A stretch of DNA of 40,786 nt from Helicobacter sp. (lineage in GTDB: Bacteria > Campylobacterota > Campylobacteria > Campylobacterales > Helicobacteraceae), in the NCBI GenBank assembly GCA_029264655.1, contig JARHZY010000163.1:1-40786 (forward strand), read 5' to 3'. A program made the translations under genes and the position numbers. This document shows positions 4,809 through 39,542 of this stretch, piece after piece. The notes under the pieces were generated by a model, which made no database searches, was not told the DNA's origin, and was given only the letters and a program-made list of their open reading frames with translations. Each line of letters starts with the position of its first letter. The stretch's first letter is position 1.

Positions 4809-6806
4809 TTATGATGCACTATCTTTGGTATTTTCAATAGCATTTTCTAGAATCTTTGTGCCAATTTTGAGTGTTTGACGCAAATCCATAATATCTCGAA
4901 TCCTATTACGCACAATCTTTTCATTTTTCTTTGTTTCTTGCAAAAGCTGGTTTGGGATAGAATCAAAATGAGTATGTGCTGCTGGCAAGGAACAAAAGAT
5001 TTGCTCAATTACTTGGGGTAAAATCTCTAAAATGCAATCTTGCAAAAATACTCTATCAATAGGTGCTAAATCCACTCTTTTTGCTTGTTTAACAAGGGCT
5101 TTGTTAGCATGGAATTTTTGCTCTATGCGTAAAATCACGCACTCAAGTAACATTGTTTTGGTAGCTTGCACCCATACACTTAAAGTTGTGATGTTTGTAT
5201 GTGCTTGCATTACAAAATCATTCATAATATTATTATGTTGCTTTGTAAAATTATGAAAAACTCCAAGCTGAAATTCTTCAAGATTAATATAGCAATCCAT
5301 ACTAATATAGGCTGGTTTTTTTTGCAATATAAGACGATGTCCTTGTGCTATCCAATCATGTAATACTTGTCCAAATGTCTGCATCATATCTTGCACACTT
5401 TGTGCTATATATGAATCAAGACGCGTAAGCTTTGTAAGTAAGCTTTTATTTTTACGCACTAAAAGACTTTTAGAATCTTCTATTTCTTTTAGTAGTTCTT
5501 TATGGTGGAGTTGAAAACTTTCATAAACAATGCGGCGGTTTGTAATTAAGTCAAAAAATTTAGGTTGATTGGGACGCGTTTTTATTTTGATAATTTCAAT
5601 ATTATCAAGCACACTTTCTACAATGCTATCAAAATATTTTTTTAATCCTTTTGAAATAGTAACAAATATTTCACGATTATATTCAGCAATAAGTTGCTTT
5701 GTCTTTGCAATCAATGTTTCATTTGCTTTATGATACATTAAATCAAGTTTTTTGTAATGCTCAAAAATAATTTTATAATGTTTATCTATATTTTTATTCT
5801 TTTCAAACGCATTTTTAAGGATTGTAACACCCCGCTTTGATTTGGCGATTTGCAAAGCAGTTTGCAAACTATCTGCAATATCTTGCATAATTGTGTTTTG
5901 CAATGTAGCTTGTTTTGTCGTATCTTTTTGGGCATAATAAGATTCTATAAGTGCTTTTGTTTGGTCAAGTGAGGTTATAATGCTCTCCATAGGACGTGCT
6001 TTGTTTGTTAGCTGTTGTTTATATAATGTGCCAATAATTTTACACAAGGCAAACTTCTCTTCAAGCCTATAAGCTTCGAGAAGATTTCCAAGATGCATAT
6101 CATAGAGTGCATGGAGATTAAATTGGGAATCAAGCTGTTTGCGTTGGGTTGATATTTGCTCTAATACCTCATGATCCTCTTTTTCTTTATCATCATAACA
6201 AAGTATAGCAATGGTTGGTTTCTTTTTTATAATCTTTAAAAGCTCTTCTTTTTTTAATTTTTTTGGTTTGTTAAGCAACCATATTATACAATCAGAATCT
6301 TTAAGCACATTTAATGTTTTTTTATCGCTAAAATCATTTTCTTTTACAATCATACATTCTTGTAATAATGGCGATGGAGTAAATATTTCAAAATACTCAA
6401 TTTCTTCTAAATGGCTTGATGTGCAATCAAGTGTATGCAAACTGATATTTGCACTTCCATTTTTATAGTGTGCTTTAGTAAAAAAATAAGGGGCAAAATG
6501 AATGACAAACTTCTTTTGTGCAAGTCCATTATGCAGGGGTATAAGAGAATCTTTAAAAAGCACATTAAGCAAAGTAATCATAGAGAGATGGCAATCTCCT
6601 ATGAGTTGCACGCATAATGGATTTTTATAATATCCGCGTAGCTGCTTATAATATTGTTTTATTTCTAGGGTTGGGTGTAGCTTTGGTGTATTGATAATTT
6701 TTTCGGCTTGCTTAATCTCTTGTAAGATATCACCCGTGTTTTCTTTGCTTAAATTTTTATAATACAAATCATCATATTCTTGTATAAATTGTGTTAATAG
6801 ATTCAT
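4809..6806 (-). CDS. Dynamin-like protein 2 (Cj-DLP2-like) with degenerate GTPase motifs
   Basis: N-terminus NLLTQFIQEYDDLY; P-loop-position segment VQLIGDCHLSMITLLNVLF; IFTPSPLL before the G3 position; long helical C-terminal stalk; ATGA overlap with the upstream DLP1-like gene. Confidence 0.65.
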   Translation of the reverse strand: MNLLTQFIQEYDDLYYKNLSKENTGDILQEIKQAEKIINTPKLHPTLEIKQYYKQLRGYYKNPLCVQLIGDCHLSMITLLNVLFKDSLIPLHNGLAQKKFVIHFAPYFFTKAHYKNGSANISLHTLDCTSSHLEEIEYFEIFTPSPLLQECMIVKENDFSDKKTLNVLKDSDCIIWLLNKPKKLKKEELLKIIKKKPTIAILCYDDKEKEDHEVLEQISTQRKQLDSQFNLHALYDMHLGNLLEAYRLEEKFALCKIIGTLYKQQLTNKARPMESIITSLDQTKALIESYYAQKDTTKQATLQNTIMQDIADSLQTALQIAKSKRGVTILKNAFEKNKNIDKHYKIIFEHYKKLDLMYHKANETLIAKTKQLIAEYNREIFVTISKGLKKYFDSIVESVLDNIEIIKIKTRPNQPKFFDLITNRRIVYESFQLHHKELLKEIEDSKSLLVRKNKSLLTKLTRLDSYIAQSVQDMMQTFGQVLHDWIAQGHRLILQKKPAYISMDCYINLEEFQLGVFHNFTKQHNNIMNDFVMQAHTNITTLSVWVQATKTMLLECVILRIEQKFHANKALVKQAKRVDLAPIDRVFLQDCILEILPQVIEQIFCSLPAAHTHFDSIPNQLLQETKKNEKIVRNRIRDIMDLRQTLKIGTKILENAIENTKDSAS

Positions 6807-9130
6807 TGTTGTCCCCCATGCACAAGCATTGTAATTAATGTATCAAATTCTTCTATTGCATAACTTTTAGAATCATTAAAATATTCAATAAAACAAGATT
6901 CCAAAATATATTCAAGTTGTTGCAATTGCGTGTGGAAAAGATTTATTTTGTTATGAAAAAGTGTATTAATATTACGCTCTAAAAGTAAAAAATAATAATC
7001 AAAACTTTCTTTTAATGGCACAATAACAGAATCTTCTTGTATCTCTGTTTTTTTAATGGTGTTAGGCAATAAAATATCAAGCCGATAGGAAAGATGCTCA
7101 ACTACAATTGTGTTGCTATCACCAAAAAAATCTGTTTGGATATTAGTCTTATATTGCATAAAAATAAGCTCCAAAATTTTTTTATGCTGTTTGGTTGTTG
7201 CAAAGTTTGCAAGCGATTGTGTATTGTTTGGTTGCAACAAAGTTGTAATCTCATGGATCTCGCGTATAGCAAAAAAATGTTTATGTAATATTTGGGCAAG
7301 CTCACGCAGTCCAACAATAAGACTTTGTATCATAGAAGTTTTTAATTTTTGCATATCAATATTGCCACGTTTTTTTGTTTCATAATTGAGTGCTTGTATA
7401 AATTGGGCATAGAGATTATCGCGTAAATTTGTGAAAGCATCATAAAATGAATAGTATTGTGCTGGAAGTTTTTTTAATATTGCTTGCGATAAAGCTTTGA
7501 TATGATTAATTTGCAAACGTACTGCATCTTGGTTGCTAGTTGTATTAGAATCTGTTTGTATTGATTCTGGTGCGATATGGCAAAGCGTCAATATATTTTC
7601 TAACAAGCTTATATTAAAATGCTTTAATGGTTTGCCAAAAACATGTGTAAAAAGTGTGGATTCTAATTCTAAAATACCACTTGTTGCTATATCAAAGCCA
7701 CTTTCAGATGTGCTAGAACCATGGCATCTAATTGCATGGGTAACACCAGCAGTAATAAAATGGAAAGTAAGTTTTTCAAGTTTTTGTTGTTTTTCTTTTT
7801 GTTGGCATGTAAGTCGTTGTTCTATGGTAGTTTGTATTTTTTGGCAAATATTTTGTCGTTTTCTTAATGTCATATTAGCACGATCAATATGCGTTATAAT
7901 AAAATGTATATGCGATATATTAGCTTTATTAATAAGACGCAATAGCACGGCAATTATTTTATCATAAAGAAAAACTAGATTCATTTCATTGTAGCTTGCC
8001 AAATAAAGCACAATATCACTCTTTGCGGTATAATTATATACTTGTAAATGACGAAATGTTTGTGGAATGAGTGATGGTGTGTTAATAAGATGCATAAATT
8101 GCAGGATTTCATAATTTTGTGGCACTATTATATGGTCAGCGATATTGATTTTATTGTTGGGAAAGCAAGAATTATAGAGTTTCTCATACTTCATTTTCTC
8201 ATACCCATGTTTTAAACAATCATGAAAAGTTTGCTGCAATTGCTTGTAGCTATTAGCTATATTAGTAATTGGCGATTCTTGTAAGGATTGTAAATCGCCT
8301 AAGTGCATATATTCTATAGTAGCAAGTGATTTACCATAGCAATATTCAATCGGGGCTTTTGCTTCTAATGGTGTATTAGCTTCTATAGATTTTTTACCAT
8401 CATAAAGCAATGTGGCAATTAGTGTTGATTTACCTGTTTTTTGCCCACCAATCACTACTACCTTTTTTGTAAAATCCTCTTCACAAAGAAAAAGAAGTTT
8501 ATTTGCCCATGTTACTTTTTTCAGAATCTTTTTTGCTCTCACTATAGCATCAATTTGATTTTTTAAAGGCGTTTTTGCAACCGGCAAATGGATAAAAGAA
8601 GTAGCTTTAGAAGCTGCATTATTAAATGCATTTTGCACCTTTGTCAAATCTATTTGCATGGCGGTTTCAATGCATTTTTGTTCATGAAACCCAATAATTC
8701 CTTGTTCTCGCAAAGTCCTTGTATGTTTAGTAATAGCTCGTATTGCTTTAGAATCAATATGGTGTAGAATACTTGCTTGTATGCATTGTATATAATGAAT
8801 ATGATATTTTGCATGTAATGAATGAAAACGCGAGCAAAAAGCTTGGCAAAGCATTGTAAAGCTTGGAATCATCATAAATATTGCAATGTTTTGTTCATTA
8901 CATGCAAGCAATAAAGAACATGCCTCATATACACTAAACGCTTGTGTTTCTTGTGTTGTTTTTAGAGTTTGCAAAGGACTATGTAGAAGTATATAATTTG
9001 GAGATTCTTGCACATAGAGTAAATGGAAAAAAGTTTGCACTCTTTTATTTGGCTCTTGGGCTATTAATGCCAAATAATCATGTAAGATAGCAATATTTTG
9101 TGTATGTTTTTGTTTCTTTTTTGCTTTCAT
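6803..9130 (-). CDS. Dynamin-like protein 1 (Cj-DLP1-like)
   Basis: VVVIGGQKTGKSTLI (G1), LINTPSL (G3 position), FIITHID (G4 position), SGILELESTLF, helical stalk; AAGGA RBS. Confidence 0.78.
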   Translation of the reverse strand: MKAKKKQKHTQNIAILHDYLALIAQEPNKRVQTFFHLLYVQESPNYILLHSPLQTLKTTQETQAFSVYEACSLLLACNEQNIAIFMMIPSFTMLCQAFCSRFHSLHAKYHIHYIQCIQASILHHIDSKAIRAITKHTRTLREQGIIGFHEQKCIETAMQIDLTKVQNAFNNAASKATSFIHLPVAKTPLKNQIDAIVRAKKILKKVTWANKLLFLCEEDFTKKVVVIGGQKTGKSTLIATLLYDGKKSIEANTPLEAKAPIEYCYGKSLATIEYMHLGDLQSLQESPITNIANSYKQLQQTFHDCLKHGYEKMKYEKLYNSCFPNNKINIADHIIVPQNYEILQFMHLINTPSLIPQTFRHLQVYNYTAKSDIVLYLASYNEMNLVFLYDKIIAVLLRLINKANISHIHFIITHIDRANMTLRKRQNICQKIQTTIEQRLTCQQKEKQQKLEKLTFHFITAGVTHAIRCHGSSTSESGFDIATSGILELESTLFTHVFGKPLKHFNISLLENILTLCHIAPESIQTDSNTTSNQDAVRLQINHIKALSQAILKKLPAQYYSFYDAFTNLRDNLYAQFIQALNYETKKRGNIDMQKLKTSMIQSLIVGLRELAQILHKHFFAIREIHEITTLLQPNNTQSLANFATTKQHKKILELIFMQYKTNIQTDFFGDSNTIVVEHLSYRLDILLPNTIKKTEIQEDSVIVPLKESFDYYFLLLERNINTLFHNKINLFHTQLQQLEYILESCFIEYFNDSKSYAIEEFDTLITMLVHGGQQ

Positions 9131-16865: not shown

Positions 16866-17240
16866 ATGTTTCTTCTTATTTATAAAAATATGCATTATGG
16901 CTTCATGCTTTGCATGGCATTATTTTGTATTGGGTGCTATACTCCACTTATGCATTTACAAAGCATTGGGCTTGCAGAAGATATGCCATCATATAAACTC
17001 CATGCAGATAATATAGATAAAATATCGCAAAATACAATTATTTTTTATAAAGAATGTAGCCACAATGGCAGTGCATGGCTTTATGAATGCCAAAGCATAG
17101 GGTTAGAATCTCTCCAACAAGCTATTTATCTATATTATCCAAATACAATTATAAACAATATTACTATGTTTTTTTATCCTAAAAAAACATATATACGTTT
17201 TGAAATTCATGATTCTAGTCTTTTGCAAGATATACCATAA
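16866..17240 (+). CDS. Hypothetical protein, probable lipoprotein
   Basis: AAGGA RBS, TGCTATAAT extended -10 at about 16797-16805, hydrophobic stretch ending FCIG-C, further Cys pair (EC...EC). Confidence 0.6.
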   Translation: MFLLIYKNMHYGFMLCMALFCIGCYTPLMHLQSIGLAEDMPSYKLHADNIDKISQNTIIFYKECSHNGSAWLYECQSIGLESLQQAIYLYYPNTIINNITMFFYPKKTYIRFEIHDSSLLQDIP

Positions 17241-17575: not shown

Positions 17576-19237
17576 TCACACAAAATAAAATGCACGGAGT
17601 TTTGCACTCCTTGCGCGTTTATTACGTGCTAGCTCTTTATTATCTGCACTTAATGGTTTTTTATATAAATTCAAGCCTTTTGCATGGTTATTGCCACATG
17701 TGCATTGAAAGCTCCCTACATCACATAGACAACTCCTTGTCCATTGCCTAAAAGTTTCTTTAATGATTCTATCTTCAAGCGAATGGAAAGAAATAATGCA
17801 AAGTAAAACATGGTGCAAATCCCTGCATGCTTCAAGCAAACCGCGTAATTGCCCTAACTCATCATTGACAGCAATGCGTAAAGCTTGGTAAATCAGTGTA
17901 GCGGGATGTATTTTAGTTTTTGTATGCATTTGCAGGGCAATATTTTGCAAATTTTCACCTGTAATTGCCCCTAGCTTACGCTCTTGTATAATTAAATTTA
18001 CCAATTTCTTATATTCTCGTATTTCACCATAATCTTTAAAAATTTGTTCAAGCATATATTTACTATATGTATTGAGAATTGTATCTGCACGCAATGTCTG
18101 TGTTGTATCCATACGCATATCAAGCTCTTTTGCATGGAAGCTAAAACCGCGTTCAAGTGTATCAAACTGATATGAACTTACACCAATATCAGCCAATATA
18201 CCACAAAGTTGTGCGTTACTTTGCTGTATTTCTTTAATAATAGATGGCAACAATGTGCTAAAATCACCATGTCTTATTTGCAAGCGGCTTCCAAACTCTT
18301 GCATATTTTTCTTATTATATTGCAGTGCCTCCATATCTCTATCAATACCAATAATATGTAAATTGTGGTATTTTGACAATAAAGCACGACTCATACCCCC
18401 AAATCCAAGCGTGCAATCTATAAGCACTTTTGTGGTATCTTTATCGTATGAATGTGGTATATAATTTATATGTGTAGGTAAAAATATTCTATCAAAAGTA
18501 TCAAGAACATGCTCTAGTAAAACGGGAATATGTGGTGTTGCAGCTATTTTGTTGTTTTTGTGATTAGTATGTGGTATTTTTGTTATAGTTTCAGAATCTT
18601 GTATAGCCAATATTTCTTGTTCTTGTGTATCTAGCATAATATGTTGCATAGAATCTTTTATGGCAATAGATTCTATGCATATGTCTTGCACATAGCAAGA
18701 ATTAGCTTGCCAAGCCTTATCTTGAATTGCTTTGTTTGTGCTATATGTATCCTGCATTAATAGATTTTCTTTTGCTTGCAATGCTTGTTGCTGTGCCATA
18801 TAACGTTCTAAAATAATACATGCACTTATACTATCAAGTTTGCCATCTTTGCGTGCATTTTTTCTGTTTTTATAATGCCTATCTTTAAGCCAATGGTTTG
18901 CTTCTACACTACTATATGATTCATCAATATAGATAATTTTACCGCAAAAACCTATTAAACTAAGAAAATGGGTGATACGTTTTTGCATAACTATATCTAT
19001 TGGAGATATTGCTTTAGAATCCTGTGCTATATCATTGCAAGACTTATCTTGCAAGGGCATACCAACAACAAGAGTAATATAATGCATATCTTTACAATAT
19101 TGCATAAGTGTATTATATAATTCTTTACTTGCTTGATGTCGATTTTTACGTATTATGGGTGGCAATGGCACAATGATATTTTGCACAACTCTTGCTATAC
19201 CGATACGTTTCAAACCAAAGTCAATACCAAAAATCAC
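17576..19237 (-). CDS. ruvX-rsmH: Fusion of YqgF/RuvX pre-16S rRNA nuclease and 16S rRNA m4C1402 methyltransferase RsmH
   Basis: N-part GIDFGLKRIGIA, VVGMP, IDESYSS, DSISACIILERY; C-part HIPVLL, DCTLGFGG, GIDRD, ADIGVSSYQ, RGFSF, LDMRMD, QALRIAVNDEL, ISFHSLEDR, RARSAKLR. GTG 19237 has a GAGG RBS and overlaps the mtaB TGA. Confidence 0.93.
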   Translation of the reverse strand: MIFGIDFGLKRIGIARVVQNIIVPLPPIIRKNRHQASKELYNTLMQYCKDMHYITLVVGMPLQDKSCNDIAQDSKAISPIDIVMQKRITHFLSLIGFCGKIIYIDESYSSVEANHWLKDRHYKNRKNARKDGKLDSISACIILERYMAQQQALQAKENLLMQDTYSTNKAIQDKAWQANSCYVQDICIESIAIKDSMQHIMLDTQEQEILAIQDSETITKIPHTNHKNNKIAATPHIPVLLEHVLDTFDRIFLPTHINYIPHSYDKDTTKVLIDCTLGFGGMSRALLSKYHNLHIIGIDRDMEALQYNKKNMQEFGSRLQIRHGDFSTLLPSIIKEIQQSNAQLCGILADIGVSSYQFDTLERGFSFHAKELDMRMDTTQTLRADTILNTYSKYMLEQIFKDYGEIREYKKLVNLIIQERKLGAITGENLQNIALQMHTKTKIHPATLIYQALRIAVNDELGQLRGLLEACRDLHHVLLCIISFHSLEDRIIKETFRQWTRSCLCDVGSFQCTCGNNHAKGLNLYKKPLSADNKELARNKRARSAKLRAFYFV

Positions 19238-20544
19238 GAACACACCTCATAATCAAAGGCAAAATTATATTTTCCTATAATATCATATTTTTTTACAACT
19301 ACCCATTGCCCTCTTAGTTGCTTATTTTCATCTACATTTGGTAATAATACTCTATTAAAATATTGATCAAAACCGACAAGATAACTTCCTTGCCCTATAG
19401 AATCATACCCTTGCATAACTTTTTGCCCTTCAATTAAAACATAAAGTGGTGTTGTGCAGTTTTGACGGAATATTTTATTCTTTTCTTGCACTATATATGT
19501 AATCTGCCGCAAACGCTCTTTTGCCACATTACCATTTACTTGTATAAGATTAAGTGTATTTTTTGCAGATTTTGTGCCAGTGCGTGGGCTATATATAAAT
19601 GGATGGATATGTGTCAATGGTAGTTGTTTTAAATGCGAAAGTCCTTCATCAAAAATTTCTTCTGTTTCACCATAATGCCCAACAATATAATCAGTGCCTA
19701 GACTAAACCCTTTTTCTGCGATAGCATGAAAAAGCTCTAGATCGCATCTAAAAGTGTTTTTACGATTCATGATTGTAAGCATAGTTTGACTAGTATGTTG
19801 CAAGGCAATATGTAAATGACGTTCTAATTTTGGTAATTCTAGAATCTCTAAAAACCTTGAATCAATTTGGCTTGGTTCAAGACTACCTAATCGTATGCGT
19901 AAAATCCCCTTAATGTCATGAATTTTTTGTATCAAAGTAGCAATATGCGTATGCGTATCAAGTCCATAACTACCAATATTTGTCCCTGTTAATATTACTT
20001 CAGTAACACCATTTTGTGCTAAAAGTTGTATTTGCTCTAAAATATGTTGTTCTTGAAAACTCCTTGCACTCCCACGCACACTTGGAATAATGCAATAGCT
20101 ACAAGCAAAATTGCAGCCCTCTTGAATCTTAATAAAAGCACGCACTTTTCCTACTACTTTTGGCAAAAGTGTTGAATCAATATGTTTTTGTATTTTTTCT
20201 TTTGGTAAAAAAACACGATTTTTGCTTGATAGAAATGTTTGTATATCTTCTTTGTGGCTATGTGCAAAAATACCATGCACAAGCCCATCATGAAAAAGTT
20301 TAGTGCCTATATGTTTTACTCCACAACCCGTAAAAATGACGCGTTTTCCAGCGTTTGTATATTTACGTGCATACCCACGCACTTCTCTATCTGCTTTGTT
20401 TGTTACTGTGCAAGAATTAATCACAATAGTATCTGCCTCTGTTTCACTAGCAACAATACTATGCTCTTTTATATTACTAATCATAACCTGTGTATCATAA
20501 AGATTACTCCTACAACCAAAGGTTTTAAAATATATTTTTGCCAA
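19234..20544 (-). CDS. mtaB: tRNA t6A37 methylthiotransferase MtaB
   Basis: KTFGCRSN, INSCTVT, KIQEGCNFACSYC radical-SAM motif, RLGSLEP, HPFIYSPRTGT; TTG start at 20544 with AAGGA RBS. Confidence 0.92.
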   Translation of the reverse strand: MAKIYFKTFGCRSNLYDTQVMISNIKEHSIVASETEADTIVINSCTVTNKADREVRGYARKYTNAGKRVIFTGCGVKHIGTKLFHDGLVHGIFAHSHKEDIQTFLSSKNRVFLPKEKIQKHIDSTLLPKVVGKVRAFIKIQEGCNFACSYCIIPSVRGSARSFQEQHILEQIQLLAQNGVTEVILTGTNIGSYGLDTHTHIATLIQKIHDIKGILRIRLGSLEPSQIDSRFLEILELPKLERHLHIALQHTSQTMLTIMNRKNTFRCDLELFHAIAEKGFSLGTDYIVGHYGETEEIFDEGLSHLKQLPLTHIHPFIYSPRTGTKSAKNTLNLIQVNGNVAKERLRQITYIVQEKNKIFRQNCTTPLYVLIEGQKVMQGYDSIGQGSYLVGFDQYFNRVLLPNVDENKQLRGQWVVVKKYDIIGKYNFAFDYEVCS

Positions 20545-20643
20545 GATAATCCTTAAGTTTTTATTTATTATACATAATAGCATACAACAATATATATTAT
20601 CGATGCCTTACGATAAAAATAATCTATAAATAGCAATTAATTC

Positions 20644-36344: not shown

Positions 36345-39300
36345 TTATGCTTTATTCTTGCCAAAATGAATACTAAAGTTTATCTCTGAACCATCAAATA
36401 TTTCATGCAATTTCTCTTTTGGAGTATTCTTAAAAAAGTCAATCAAAGAATCTGCATCAAGGTCTTTTATATGCTGTGTATCTCTTATGCTATCTACATG
36501 TTCCTGTGCATCATCTTCTTGTGGTATTTGTGTTTGCGTATTATCTAATGGCATATCATCTGTATTTAATGGTATAGATTCTGCAATATCTAATTGCCTA
36601 TTATCTTGTTTGGCTTCCTCCTCTAAAGACTGCTCTAAACGTATAATTGGCACATCGCAACTTTCCCCCAAAGCTTCAGCTAATTCTGTTTCTGTAATAT
36701 TTTCAATAGATTCTTCACTAGATGGCAAAGTAACATAAAGCATTTCATCACTATGTGGTATGGTTGCCTCACTTTCTGCTATTTTATTAACAGAATCTTG
36801 TATGAAAAGATTATCAGATTCTTCTGAATCTAGTGGAATAGATTCTGTATTTTCTTCTAAAGCAGTATCAATATCTGCAAGCATATCATCTAATGCATTA
36901 GAATCTTGTAATGTTGTTTCTTTATCTTGCATTGTTAATTGCTCTGTAAGCATATCATCTTTATTAGCGATTGTATCAATATCTAAATCCAAAGCAACAT
37001 CATGTCCATCTAAGTCTAAACTATTGGCAGAATCTAATGAAGTATTAAGCAATCCATCAAGCATATTATCATGTTTTTCCTCATTTTCTTGTGATACATT
37101 GTCTATTGAAGAGGCTTGGTTGTCTAATGATGATTCTTGCATATCTATATCCAAAGGCATATCAAGCAACATATTTATATCATCATCTAGTTTTGTTTCT
37201 TCATCTGTATTTATTATTTTTTGATTATCTATAGCAGTATCATTTGGCATATCTATTAATGCATCATCGTTAATTGCACGTAAAGCTTCATTAACCTCTG
37301 CTAATGTATCTTCAGCCAATATTGTTGGTTTTTGTATGCTATCCTCTTGTGGTGTTGTTTCTTGCCCATCCAAACTAAGCGTATCCATAGATTCTAAATC
37401 GTTTGTATCTAATATAGATTCCAAGTCAATATCTAGCTTTTCTTGTGGATCTTGTATGTCTGCATGAAGAGATGATTCTAAATCATTGCTATTACTTTCT
37501 ACCTCATCTAGCCCTATTTTTGCATTCTTTAACTCATCTAATGTAAGCTCGGCTTGTAAATCTTTTGTATTAGATTCTAAATGCTCATGCAAGGTATCAT
37601 CAAGTATATTTATAGAATCCATATCATTCTCATCTAAAGCAATCTCTTTAGATTCATTATCATGCTTTAAATCCAATGTATCTGGTGTAGTAATACTAGA
37701 ATCTAAATGCGTGCTCTCTAATAACATAGATTCTAAATCATCATCTAGTGATGTAGATTGGCTTTGTGTCTCATCTATTTGTGATGGTATAGCCATAGTC
37801 TGTGTTGGATCGGTTTCATTATCTATATTTTCTATACCCCCTATATCTAATGTTGCTAACTCATCTATTTCTAATTCCTTTGCATTATCTTGTAAAGGAG
37901 CATTATCTTCTTGTGTGGAATCAGCCATTACCAATTCATCTTGTGCTTGCACATCATCTAATTGTGTATCAAATGATAAATTATTAAAAGCACTATCAAG
38001 TGCCGCACTTAGGTCATCAAATGCATCATCAAGTGTGCCGCTTGTAGTATTATCATCTTGGACTTCTTGCTTTTTTAAGGTTTCATCAAGCCCACTTAAA
38101 TCAATGGTATCTATGTGTTCTTTTGTAGTCTTATCATCTATTGCAGGAGATTCTAAATCAAGATTACCCAAATCAACATCTGCAAGCCCCATTTCCTCTA
38201 AATTATCTTTGTTAATGAGTGTAATATCTTGTATTGTAGAGTTTGGCGTATTGTCTAAAGGCACAGAATCTATTGTATGTGTATCTTGGCTATTTTGTTC
38301 GGGATCTATACTATCTGTAATTACTTGCGATTCTAGACTAACATTATTAGATACATTGTCATTTGTATCTTGTAGTGGGTTTTTAGCGTTTTGGGTTGCA
38401 ATTTCTGTATTATCTCCTTGCACCTCATCTATAAGATATTCATGCTCTTTTGGTGCTGCATTGCTATCTGTTTCTAGCAAATCTGCTTGTTCTTTATTAA
38501 TGTTTTCTTCAGCCTCTTTTGCTTTGCGTTCCTCTTCTTCTTGACGTGCTTGCAAAAACTTTTTAGGACTTGGTTGTAATAAATCTCTTTCATCATCACT
38601 TAAAAATAAATCATCTTCATCATCAAGATTATCTGCTACTTCTTTTGCTTCTTCCTCAATTTGACTTGGCATACCAAGACTAGCAGCTTTTAATGCAGAT
38701 GAATCCATAATAGAATCAAGATCAAAATTTGCTAAATCAAGTGGATTATCACTACTTGGTTTTAAATCGCTTAAATCACTATCAAATATTGAACCAACAC
38801 GAGTTTCCTGTGCTTCATGCGAATCCTGATCTGCTATAGCTTGCATATCCTTTTCATCTATTTGGTCTATATTATCTGCTGTATCTTCATGTGGTATTTC
38901 AGATGTAACTTCACCTGCTTCTTCAAGACTTGAGAAATCAAGTGAATCTGGATTAAAATCAAGCATAGAATCTGTATCTTCATTGGCAATTTGCATAGCT
39001 TCTTCTTGTATATTATTTATAGATTCTATACCCTCTGGTGGTGTGATTTCAGCAGACTTTAAATCCATATCAATTTCATTTACAGAATTAATACTACCAT
39101 AATCTAATGTGGAATGGTTATCAACATCTTCAGACAATCCAATATCGCTTTGTTTCTTTATCTCCCCTTCTTTTGGTATGCAGTCATTCAAAATCTCTAA
39201 AATATCAGTAGGTAAAAAAGGTTTTTGGATTGCAATATTAAATTCATGTTTTTTAATTTGTGTTTTACGTGCAAAAAGCAGGCAAACTTTAACTTGGTCT

Positions 39301-39488
39301 TGCAATGCAGTTAATCGCTCAAGGTTTTTGCCTACATTTTCATCATCAACAATAATACATATATAATCATTTGCATTAAAATCAGGGGCTATACGAGCTA
39401 CATTCTCAATTTCAAGATTAAGTTTTTTGCTCGCCATACCAACAAGTTTTTTAATTACTGGATTTTGATTAATTAATAATACTTTCAT
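36345..39488 (-). CDS. chePep: ChePep-like highly acidic chemotaxis protein with N-terminal receiver-like domain
   Basis: Start MKVLLINQNPVIKKLV...KKL, IIVDD, IQKPFLPT (receiver-like); about 900 aa D/E-rich region; C-terminal ELAEALGE and INFSIHF; adjacent to nucT. Confidence 0.8.
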   Translation of the reverse strand: MKVLLINQNPVIKKLVGMASKKLNLEIENVARIAPDFNANDYICIIVDDENVGKNLERLTALQDQVKVCLLFARKTQIKKHEFNIAIQKPFLPTDILEILNDCIPKEGEIKKQSDIGLSEDVDNHSTLDYGSINSVNEIDMDLKSAEITPPEGIESINNIQEEAMQIANEDTDSMLDFNPDSLDFSSLEEAGEVTSEIPHEDTADNIDQIDEKDMQAIADQDSHEAQETRVGSIFDSDLSDLKPSSDNPLDLANFDLDSIMDSSALKAASLGMPSQIEEEAKEVADNLDDEDDLFLSDDERDLLQPSPKKFLQARQEEEERKAKEAEENINKEQADLLETDSNAAPKEHEYLIDEVQGDNTEIATQNAKNPLQDTNDNVSNNVSLESQVITDSIDPEQNSQDTHTIDSVPLDNTPNSTIQDITLINKDNLEEMGLADVDLGNLDLESPAIDDKTTKEHIDTIDLSGLDETLKKQEVQDDNTTSGTLDDAFDDLSAALDSAFNNLSFDTQLDDVQAQDELVMADSTQEDNAPLQDNAKELEIDELATLDIGGIENIDNETDPTQTMAIPSQIDETQSQSTSLDDDLESMLLESTHLDSSITTPDTLDLKHDNESKEIALDENDMDSINILDDTLHEHLESNTKDLQAELTLDELKNAKIGLDEVESNSNDLESSLHADIQDPQEKLDIDLESILDTNDLESMDTLSLDGQETTPQEDSIQKPTILAEDTLAEVNEALRAINDDALIDMPNDTAIDNQKIINTDEETKLDDDINMLLDMPLDIDMQESSLDNQASSIDNVSQENEEKHDNMLDGLLNTSLDSANSLDLDGHDVALDLDIDTIANKDDMLTEQLTMQDKETTLQDSNALDDMLADIDTALEENTESIPLDSEESDNLFIQDSVNKIAESEATIPHSDEMLYVTLPSSEESIENITETELAEALGESCDVPIIRLEQSLEEEAKQDNRQLDIAESIPLNTDDMPLDNTQTQIPQEDDAQEHVDSIRDTQHIKDLDADSLIDFFKNTPKEKLHEIFDGSEINFSIHFGKNKA

Positions 39489-39542
39489 ATACGCTCTCTT
39501 CATTGTAAAATAATGATAATCTGACAAAATTCATTAAATTCA

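Follow-up and report, generated by a model that had tools for sequence, protein, structure and literature searches.

The minus-strand frame from 19237 to 17576 joins a complete RuvX (YqgF) nuclease domain to a complete RsmH methyltransferase domain within the window, the whole 40,786-nt stretch of Helicobacter sp. DNA that was analysed. It probably arose as a read-through fusion of overlapping operon neighbours, a reversible event that would have left two intact enzymes working independently at the ends of a flexible tether. The features of the locus, with positions counted in the window, were as follows.

17576..19237, minus strand: ruvX(yqgF)-rsmH fusion ORF of 553 aa and 63.6 kDa, with a GTG start
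19243..19248, minus strand: Shine-Dalgarno-like GAGGTG preceding GTG 19237, duplex energy -9.4 kcal/mol
19234..20583, minus strand: mtaB-like tRNA methylthiotransferase gene, TIGR01579 334 bits (cut-off 357), TIGR00089 above cut-off
18794..19237, minus strand: predicted RuvX/YqgF RNase-H-fold nuclease domain, PF03652 E 6.6e-19
18539..18793, minus strand: linker of about 85 aa, predicted disordered and unconserved, with AGAATCT/AGATTCT words near 18674, 18656 and 18599
17576..18538, minus strand: predicted RsmH (MraW) 16S rRNA m4C1402 methyltransferase domain, PF01795 E 1.8e-82, TIGR00006

Open-frame reading of the sequence showed no stop codon from GTG 19243 or GTG 19237 to 17576, and full-length Pfam matches bore out the uninterrupted YqgF-RsmH frame with two complete domains that the initial annotation had described. 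A protein identical to the 553-aa fusion is already present in the databases (record P0002). GTG 19237 is the better of the two start codons, because its Shine-Dalgarno (SD) pairing is stronger (-9.4 kcal/mol versus 0 for GTG 19243). As had been proposed, this start overlaps the mtaB stop (by 4 nt; GTGA, 19237-19234); it lies behind the SD-like GAGGTG. An mtaB gene precedes ruvX in both genomes of the sister genus (g6) and in all but one of the 13 genomes of the genus. The two alternative frames of the 255-nt linker are interrupted by 6 and 5 stops, and the linker frame stayed open in 26 of 20,000 shuffles. Internal starts in the linker showed SD-like pairing no stronger than -1.5 kcal/mol, which agrees with the earlier statement that no clear SD precedes the linker Met codons; the test has little power, however, because genuine stand-alone rsmH starts in relatives are likewise weak (0 to -5.8 kcal/mol). 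A promoter scan returned 14 sites against 21 expected. Elsewhere in the window, the ORFs at 36345-39527, 6803-9130, 4809-6806 and 16866-17240 (1060, 775, 665 and 124 aa) had no NCBIfam match at E 1e-8.

The N-terminal domain matched PF03652 from nt 19234 to 18794 with 69 bits (cut-off 29.2), covering model positions 3-133 of 134. The NCBIfam RuvX equivalog cut-offs were missed (NF001026, 127.3 versus 155; TIGR00250, 40.8 versus 43.25), a shortfall due either to a loop insertion or to divergence; despite these scores, tree and alignment placed the domain best as RuvX. The motifs IDFG, IDES and LDSIS, pointed out in the initial annotation, were found at aa 5, 104 and 134, and the acidic residues D6 (19222), E106 (18922) and D135 (18835) were invariant in 28 aligned Campylobacterota RuvX sequences. 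In an AlphaFold2 model strand 2-7 bears D6 and helix 133-164 bears D135, and a lineage-specific loop insertion occupies about aa 62-78, with pLDDT below 50 at 64-77. A Foldseek search showed that the model resembles M. tuberculosis RuvX 7ess. The full RNase-H-like domain and the acidic residues are common to the YqgF/RuvX family, including E. coli YqgF, M. tuberculosis 7ess and H. pylori DprB (HP0334); unlike its counterparts at most Campylobacterota loci, the RuvX of the fusion lies away from dprA and is tethered to RsmH.

The C-terminal domain matched Methyltransf_5 (PF01795) from nt 18538 to 17588 with 278 bits, covering model positions 2-306 of 309, and passed the TIGR00006 RsmH equivalog cut-off (261.6 versus 154.3 bits). 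Alignment to 1m6y and 3tka showed the RsmH motifs HIPVLL, DCTLGFGGM, IDRD, HGDF, LADIGVSSYQ, FHSLED and RSAKLR to be whole. Foldseek matches of the domain to 1n2x, 1m6y and 3tka had TM-scores of 0.82-0.85 by target, and METTL15 structures were also matched. The fold and the SAM-binding and C-terminal motifs are thus those of RsmH/MraW proteins (E. coli 3tka, T. maritima 1m6y, mitochondrial METTL15), whereas the N-terminal RuvX and linker, the position behind mtaB-ruvX and a GGM in place of GGH set the fusion apart. The change of the SAM-site GGH loop to GGM or GGL (18418-18392 in the window) is shared by most sequences of the genus (g1) and of g6, fused or unfused. According to passages of PMC2831307, E. 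coli RsmH methylates 30S subunits, with neither naked 16S rRNA nor tight-coupled 70S ribosomes as substrate, and its deletion lengthens the doubling time by 15%. The initial annotation had raised the matter of separate copies of either gene; in the source genome (G000, 86% complete) none was found, and the fusion ORF was the single match both for RuvX and for RsmH. A separate ruvC is present.

In the AlphaFold2 model, calculated from a 20-row alignment, both domains were well folded (pLDDT 80-96 in most 10-residue blocks; pTM 0.56), while the linker had pLDDT values of 20-35 at aa 161-230 and stayed below 50 over aa 161-234. Linker length ranged from 29 to 154 aa, with the frame open in 45 other records. 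Median identity to 17 other fusions was 9% for the linker, compared with 56% for RuvX and 60% for RsmH, and no residue was specific to the fusions, 0 of 427 columns separating 14 fused from 9 separate rows. The linker composition was insertion-like (log-likelihood ratio 11.2), and at the background rate its three AGAATCT-type words have a P of 0.005; a 15-nt tandem unit occurs in the linker of the H. bilis group. Aligned to a reference genome (G123), the source genome showed 82 internal in-frame insertions of at least 20 aa (median 27, maximum 108) in 71 conserved proteins, and in the reverse direction G123 showed 6. The insertions in G000 are rich in Q, T, N and H, and AGAATCT occurs in them threefold more often than in aligned coding DNA (4.05 versus 1.28 per kb). 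Lengthening of proteins by in-frame insertion is a process acting across this lineage; a literature search for insertions of this type found no description of them, and they may merit a study of their own.

Both Pfam domains occurred together in 21 other 90%-identity clusters besides that of the query, among the best 120 homologues. The named carriers are H. trogontum, H. bilis, H. aurati, H. didelphidarum and H. muridarum; in a named H. aurati contig, mtaB is followed by a 535-aa fusion. UniRef100_A0A4U8TE00, T5LDK8, A0A3D8J8V4 and A0A3D8IB91 have the same RuvX-linker-RsmH architecture at a full-length identity of 45-61%, and the RsmH domains of other fusions are 50-74% identical to that of the source genome. 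An assembly artefact is ruled out by the occurrence of this architecture in the 21 other clusters, several of which derive from named isolates. The broader suspicion of an assembly or sequencing error in a metagenome-type genome, prompted by an exact protein on record from one contig only, has a negligible probability in view of the same clusters and isolates and of the 85-codon linker, which would seldom be open by chance. Proteins from H. trogontum, H. bilis, H. aurati and H. didelphidarum bear the UniRef label 'Multifunctional fusion protein', whereas RefSeq names most fusions plain RsmH, a naming trap that hides the RuvX domain. The initial annotation knew of no description of the fusion. 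Apart from these UniRef labels its statement held, since no paper describing a RuvX-RsmH fusion or its fused and split variation was found in a search of main texts, mostly from open-access journals. PMC12641178 names both genes, in passages that contain neither 'fusion' nor 'fused'.

A two-domain profile was built from 10 fusions together with 20 single sequences each of RuvX and RsmH, taken from many phyla, and a check of every sixth score gave 527-574 bits for fusions and at most 454 bits for single RsmH. Among the best 150 matches from 1.84 billion representatives, 7 had two domains; all were from this clade and 5 of them were in the query. The profile list reaches 387 bits, with the next match after the two-domain ones at 443, so a fusion of very divergent domains could be missed. 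RuvX was sought in 11 long or two-stretch profile matches and found in none. In a sample of 151 genomes of the phylum, the 149 other RuvX matches listed, outside the genus, were all short frames (at most 198 aa), and in 80 further genomes of the family RuvX was matched in 77, always in frames of at most 293 aa. Among 50 genomes of distant lineages RuvX was found in 39, one of them with a 677-aa frame (G301:C31:26799-27167) and RsmH as a separate 322-aa ORF. None of the long RsmH or RuvX frames scanned outside the genus (G143, G182, G104, G036, and 7 long ORFs among 80 loci) held both domains. A region-restricted homologue search gave 91 candidates, too few for judging absence; a metagenome scan yielded 4 stand-alone RsmH loci, 0 of 64 plasmid records covered 80% of the query, and the ESM Atlas returned RsmH clusters only, all under 0.9.

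Other partners of the two domains were observed in these searches. RuvX-MltG fusions (PF03652 and PF02618; one from Candidatus Saccharibacteria) made up 7 of 21 long RuvX matches (P0167-P0170, P0172-P0175). There, too, the C-terminus of RuvX is joined to an unrelated enzyme, in this case a cell-wall lytic transglycosylase in other lineages; ruvX and mltG are operon neighbours elsewhere. Two apparent DprA-RuvX fusions (P0163, P0164) were rejected, being single-contig records that look like junction frameshifts. Single records of RsmH ORFs carried other N-terminal partners, namely a partial DUF520 (G036, L082:1652-2914) and a weak STAS domain (P0247).

Fused, overlapping, interrupted and unlinked states were all found within the one genus. 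With regard to related Helicobacter, a comparison that the initial annotation had suggested, the outcome was divided: the genes are fused in 6 of 13 genomes (G000, G001, G003, G005, G007, G012) and separate in 7. The separate genes overlap by 4 nt in two genomes (G004, G006), are split by an inserted membrane-protein gene in three (G002, G008, G010), and are unlinked in two (G009, G011), on different contigs with unrelated neighbours. In the three split genomes RuvX keeps an 87-92-aa remnant of the linker, and in two of them rsmH lies on the opposite strand; their RsmH matches H. bilis-named RsmH at 94-100%. One 90% cluster contains H. bilis-named proteins that are fused (594 aa) and split (253 aa; 325-329 aa), the split 325-aa RsmH being recorded from 139 contigs, and among RefSeq H. 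trogontum RsmH records 323-aa proteins stand beside those of 564 aa.

In a tree of RuvX and RsmH with 27 rows (4 redundant ones omitted), the state changed at least 5 times. A single clade of the 15 fused rows was rejected (p-AU 4e-42); G004 and G006 were nested among fused genomes with bootstrap values of 97-100%, and the unlinked G009 was sister to the fused P0019 (100%). One fusion followed by four or more fissions would be the simplest reading of this tree, and several fusions from the overlapped state would also fit it. The deepest branching order, and with it the position of g6, lacks support; that the separate state in g6 is ancestral we infer.

The gene order points to how the fusion may have originated. 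At most Campylobacterota loci ruvX lies at a distance from rsmH, as a rule behind dprA; in 5 others of those scanned (L051, L054, L056, L062, L069) it lies directly behind mnmE, which encodes a tRNA-modifying GTPase. The order mtaB-ruvX-rsmH is common to the genus and its sister genus, and in both g6 genomes the three are separate overlapping genes. A single indel would suffice for a fusion from such an arrangement, in which ruvX and rsmH already overlap. The indel would have removed the ruvX stop and placed rsmH in frame, and the junction may then have been lengthened by the in-frame insertion process seen in about 70 other proteins of the source genome. Translation would resume by re-initiation at the GTG beneath the mtaB stop, giving one 63.6-kDa chain. 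Its RsmH part would methylate late 30S particles at N4 of C1402, and its RuvX part would cleave substrates of its own, namely branched DNA, as is reported for H. pylori DprB, and perhaps also the leader of pre-16S rRNA. The link appears to have been undone several times, giving rise to the overlapping genes, the membrane-protein gene in the linker and the full separation that are now found. A general tendency of the source genome to fuse genes was rejected as an explanation: a screen against one reference (G123), which covered 1.60 of 1.62 Mb with crude ORF calls, gave 4 candidate pairs, 3 of which look like frameshifts in the reference, and ruvX-rsmH was the only fusion of two distinct genes. 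Some observations weigh against parts of this account. A purely neutral view has to reckon with the scarcity of other fusions in the source genome and with a frame that stays open over very different linker lengths while RsmH diverged to 50-74% identity, and independence of the two enzymes with an operon, mtaB-ruvX-rsmH, that groups three RNA-acting enzymes, as well as with the mnmE loci, where ruvX stands in a second RNA-modification context.

The initial annotation had taken the fusion as a Rosetta stone, indicating that trimming of 16S rRNA and methylation of its decoding centre are physically coupled. This inference was not supported: three features that would commend it were sought and not seen. 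Recurrence in an independent lineage was not seen, the 7 two-domain proteins among the best 150 matches (list to 387 bits) all belonging to this clade; nor was the fusion stably retained, with 6 of 13 genomes fused, at least 5 state changes and both alleles in H. bilis; and no conserved linker or interface was apparent in a segment of 29-154 aa with 9% identity, pLDDT 20-35 and 0 of 427 fusion-specific columns. The distribution likewise speaks against coupling, since the genes are separate in 7 of 13 genomes of the genus and polymorphic in H. bilis; the fusion, moreover, probably arose where the two already overlapped within an operon. A fusion of two ribosome-related genes that fails such tests of functional coupling is a caution for Rosetta-stone inference.

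The trimming half of the claim also needs qualification. That YqgF acts on the 5′ end of 16S rRNA stands for E. coli, but the one Helicobacter orthologue studied, DprB of H. pylori, is reported, at second hand in PMC11466669 and PMC9601230, as a Holliday-junction enzyme; according to the passages of the latter it binds and resolves junctions and can be deleted. PMC11466669 emphasises that YqgF substrates vary by species, and the D. radiodurans YqgF is described as an RNase (PMC9601230, in part). The two E. coli enzymes moreover act on different particles, RsmH on 30S and not 70S (PMC2831307), and YqgF, in its pre-16S processing, only in 70S (PMC9601230, at second hand), as far as the passages of these papers go. 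This conflict may not apply to Helicobacter, because trimming in H. pylori may end before 70S ribosomes form: parts of PMC6582327 report that 16S precursors are scarce in H. pylori polysomes, which suggests this order of events. The same parts describe H. pylori as having neither RNase E nor RNase G and as not using RNase J in rRNA maturation, and leave the 16S 5′-end maturase without a name, a position for which YqgF is a candidate in H. pylori and in Helicobacter generally. No match to RNase E or G was found in the 86% of the source genome that is represented.

These facts leave some room for a selected advantage of the fusion on pre-30S particles, where RsmH bound to the late 30S subunit would bring the tethered YqgF to the 16S 5′ leader, or the reverse. 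Such co-delivery would agree with an old and persistent fusion that was the only genuine one in the G000/G123 screen, with the RNA-enzyme operon around it, with the lack of an RNase E/G match in the incomplete source genome and with the H. pylori reports on the unnamed maturase and early end of maturation (PMC6582327, in part). It seems unlikely all the same, given separate genes in 7 of 13 genomes (on opposite strands in 2) and both forms in H. bilis, an unconserved linker with no fusion-specific column, a distribution limited to one clade among the matches listed, and an H. pylori DprB described at second hand, in parts of PMC11466669 and PMC9601230, as a deletable junction resolvase. We are equally doubtful of its fullest form, in which YqgF/DprB would be the Helicobacter 16S 5′-end maturase at the 30S stage, moved to an RNA-modification operon and then tethered to RsmH, so that a single chain would carry out both leader trimming and C1402 methylation on one and the same pre-30S particle. 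If coupling did prove true, 5′ trimming would be linked to decoding-centre methylation and the role of YqgF settled in bacteria without RNases E and G.

The advantage could instead lie in expression, the fusion fixing a 1:1 output and sparing rsmH its own weak start in the mtaB operon. Stand-alone rsmH starts in relatives are indeed weakly SD-paired (0 to -5.8 kcal/mol), the overlap of starts seen in G004, G006, G017 and G165 already implies that translation is coupled, and the frame has been kept through many linker indels. An open frame would be equally expected, however, if it were simply the only route by which RsmH is made, and strains with rsmH unlinked or on the opposite strand, together with the 325-aa H. 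bilis RsmH known from 139 contigs, make weak selection of this kind improbable as well. Lower still do we place the chance that the fused frame yields mostly two polypeptides in the cell, by an internal start near RsmH or by cleavage of the disordered linker. In G012, ATGs are found 5-9 codons ahead of the RsmH motif, with SD pairing (-2.7 and -3.2 kcal/mol) that resembles that of genuine stand-alone starts; disorder is predicted for the linker, and RefSeq has H. trogontum RsmH records of 323 aa beside those of 564 aa. In the source genome, on the other hand, the nearest internal start lies 26 codons upstream and is without SD pairing, and an RsmH with its own start predicts stops in the linker, yet 45 other records show it uninterrupted. 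A reversible read-through fusion of two probably independent enzymes remains the preferred account.

With YqgF substrates disputed across species, the near-identical fused and split alleles of H. bilis are natural test material. The gene inserted in the three split genomes encodes a Campylobacterota membrane protein, with a DUF996-like match as a lead only (0.87-0.89), and looks truncated or frameshifted in all three (L043:6891-7565, L040:4768-5298, L034:8044-8870). A 1.24-kb segment carrying rsmH is reversed in G008 relative to G002 and G010 (L040:3390-4630, L034:8955-10196, L043:7805-9047). An invertible switch was considered for this segment and not supported, as no long terminal inverted repeat was present among the 5 longest per region and the far flanks differ. 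Short TAGAAT-type words occur near the ends of the reversed segment, and in G008 a phage Mu Gam-like gene follows just downstream. Near the locus in G002, a 632-aa ORF with an ART-PolyVal ADP-ribosyltransferase domain was also observed (L034:82-1980).
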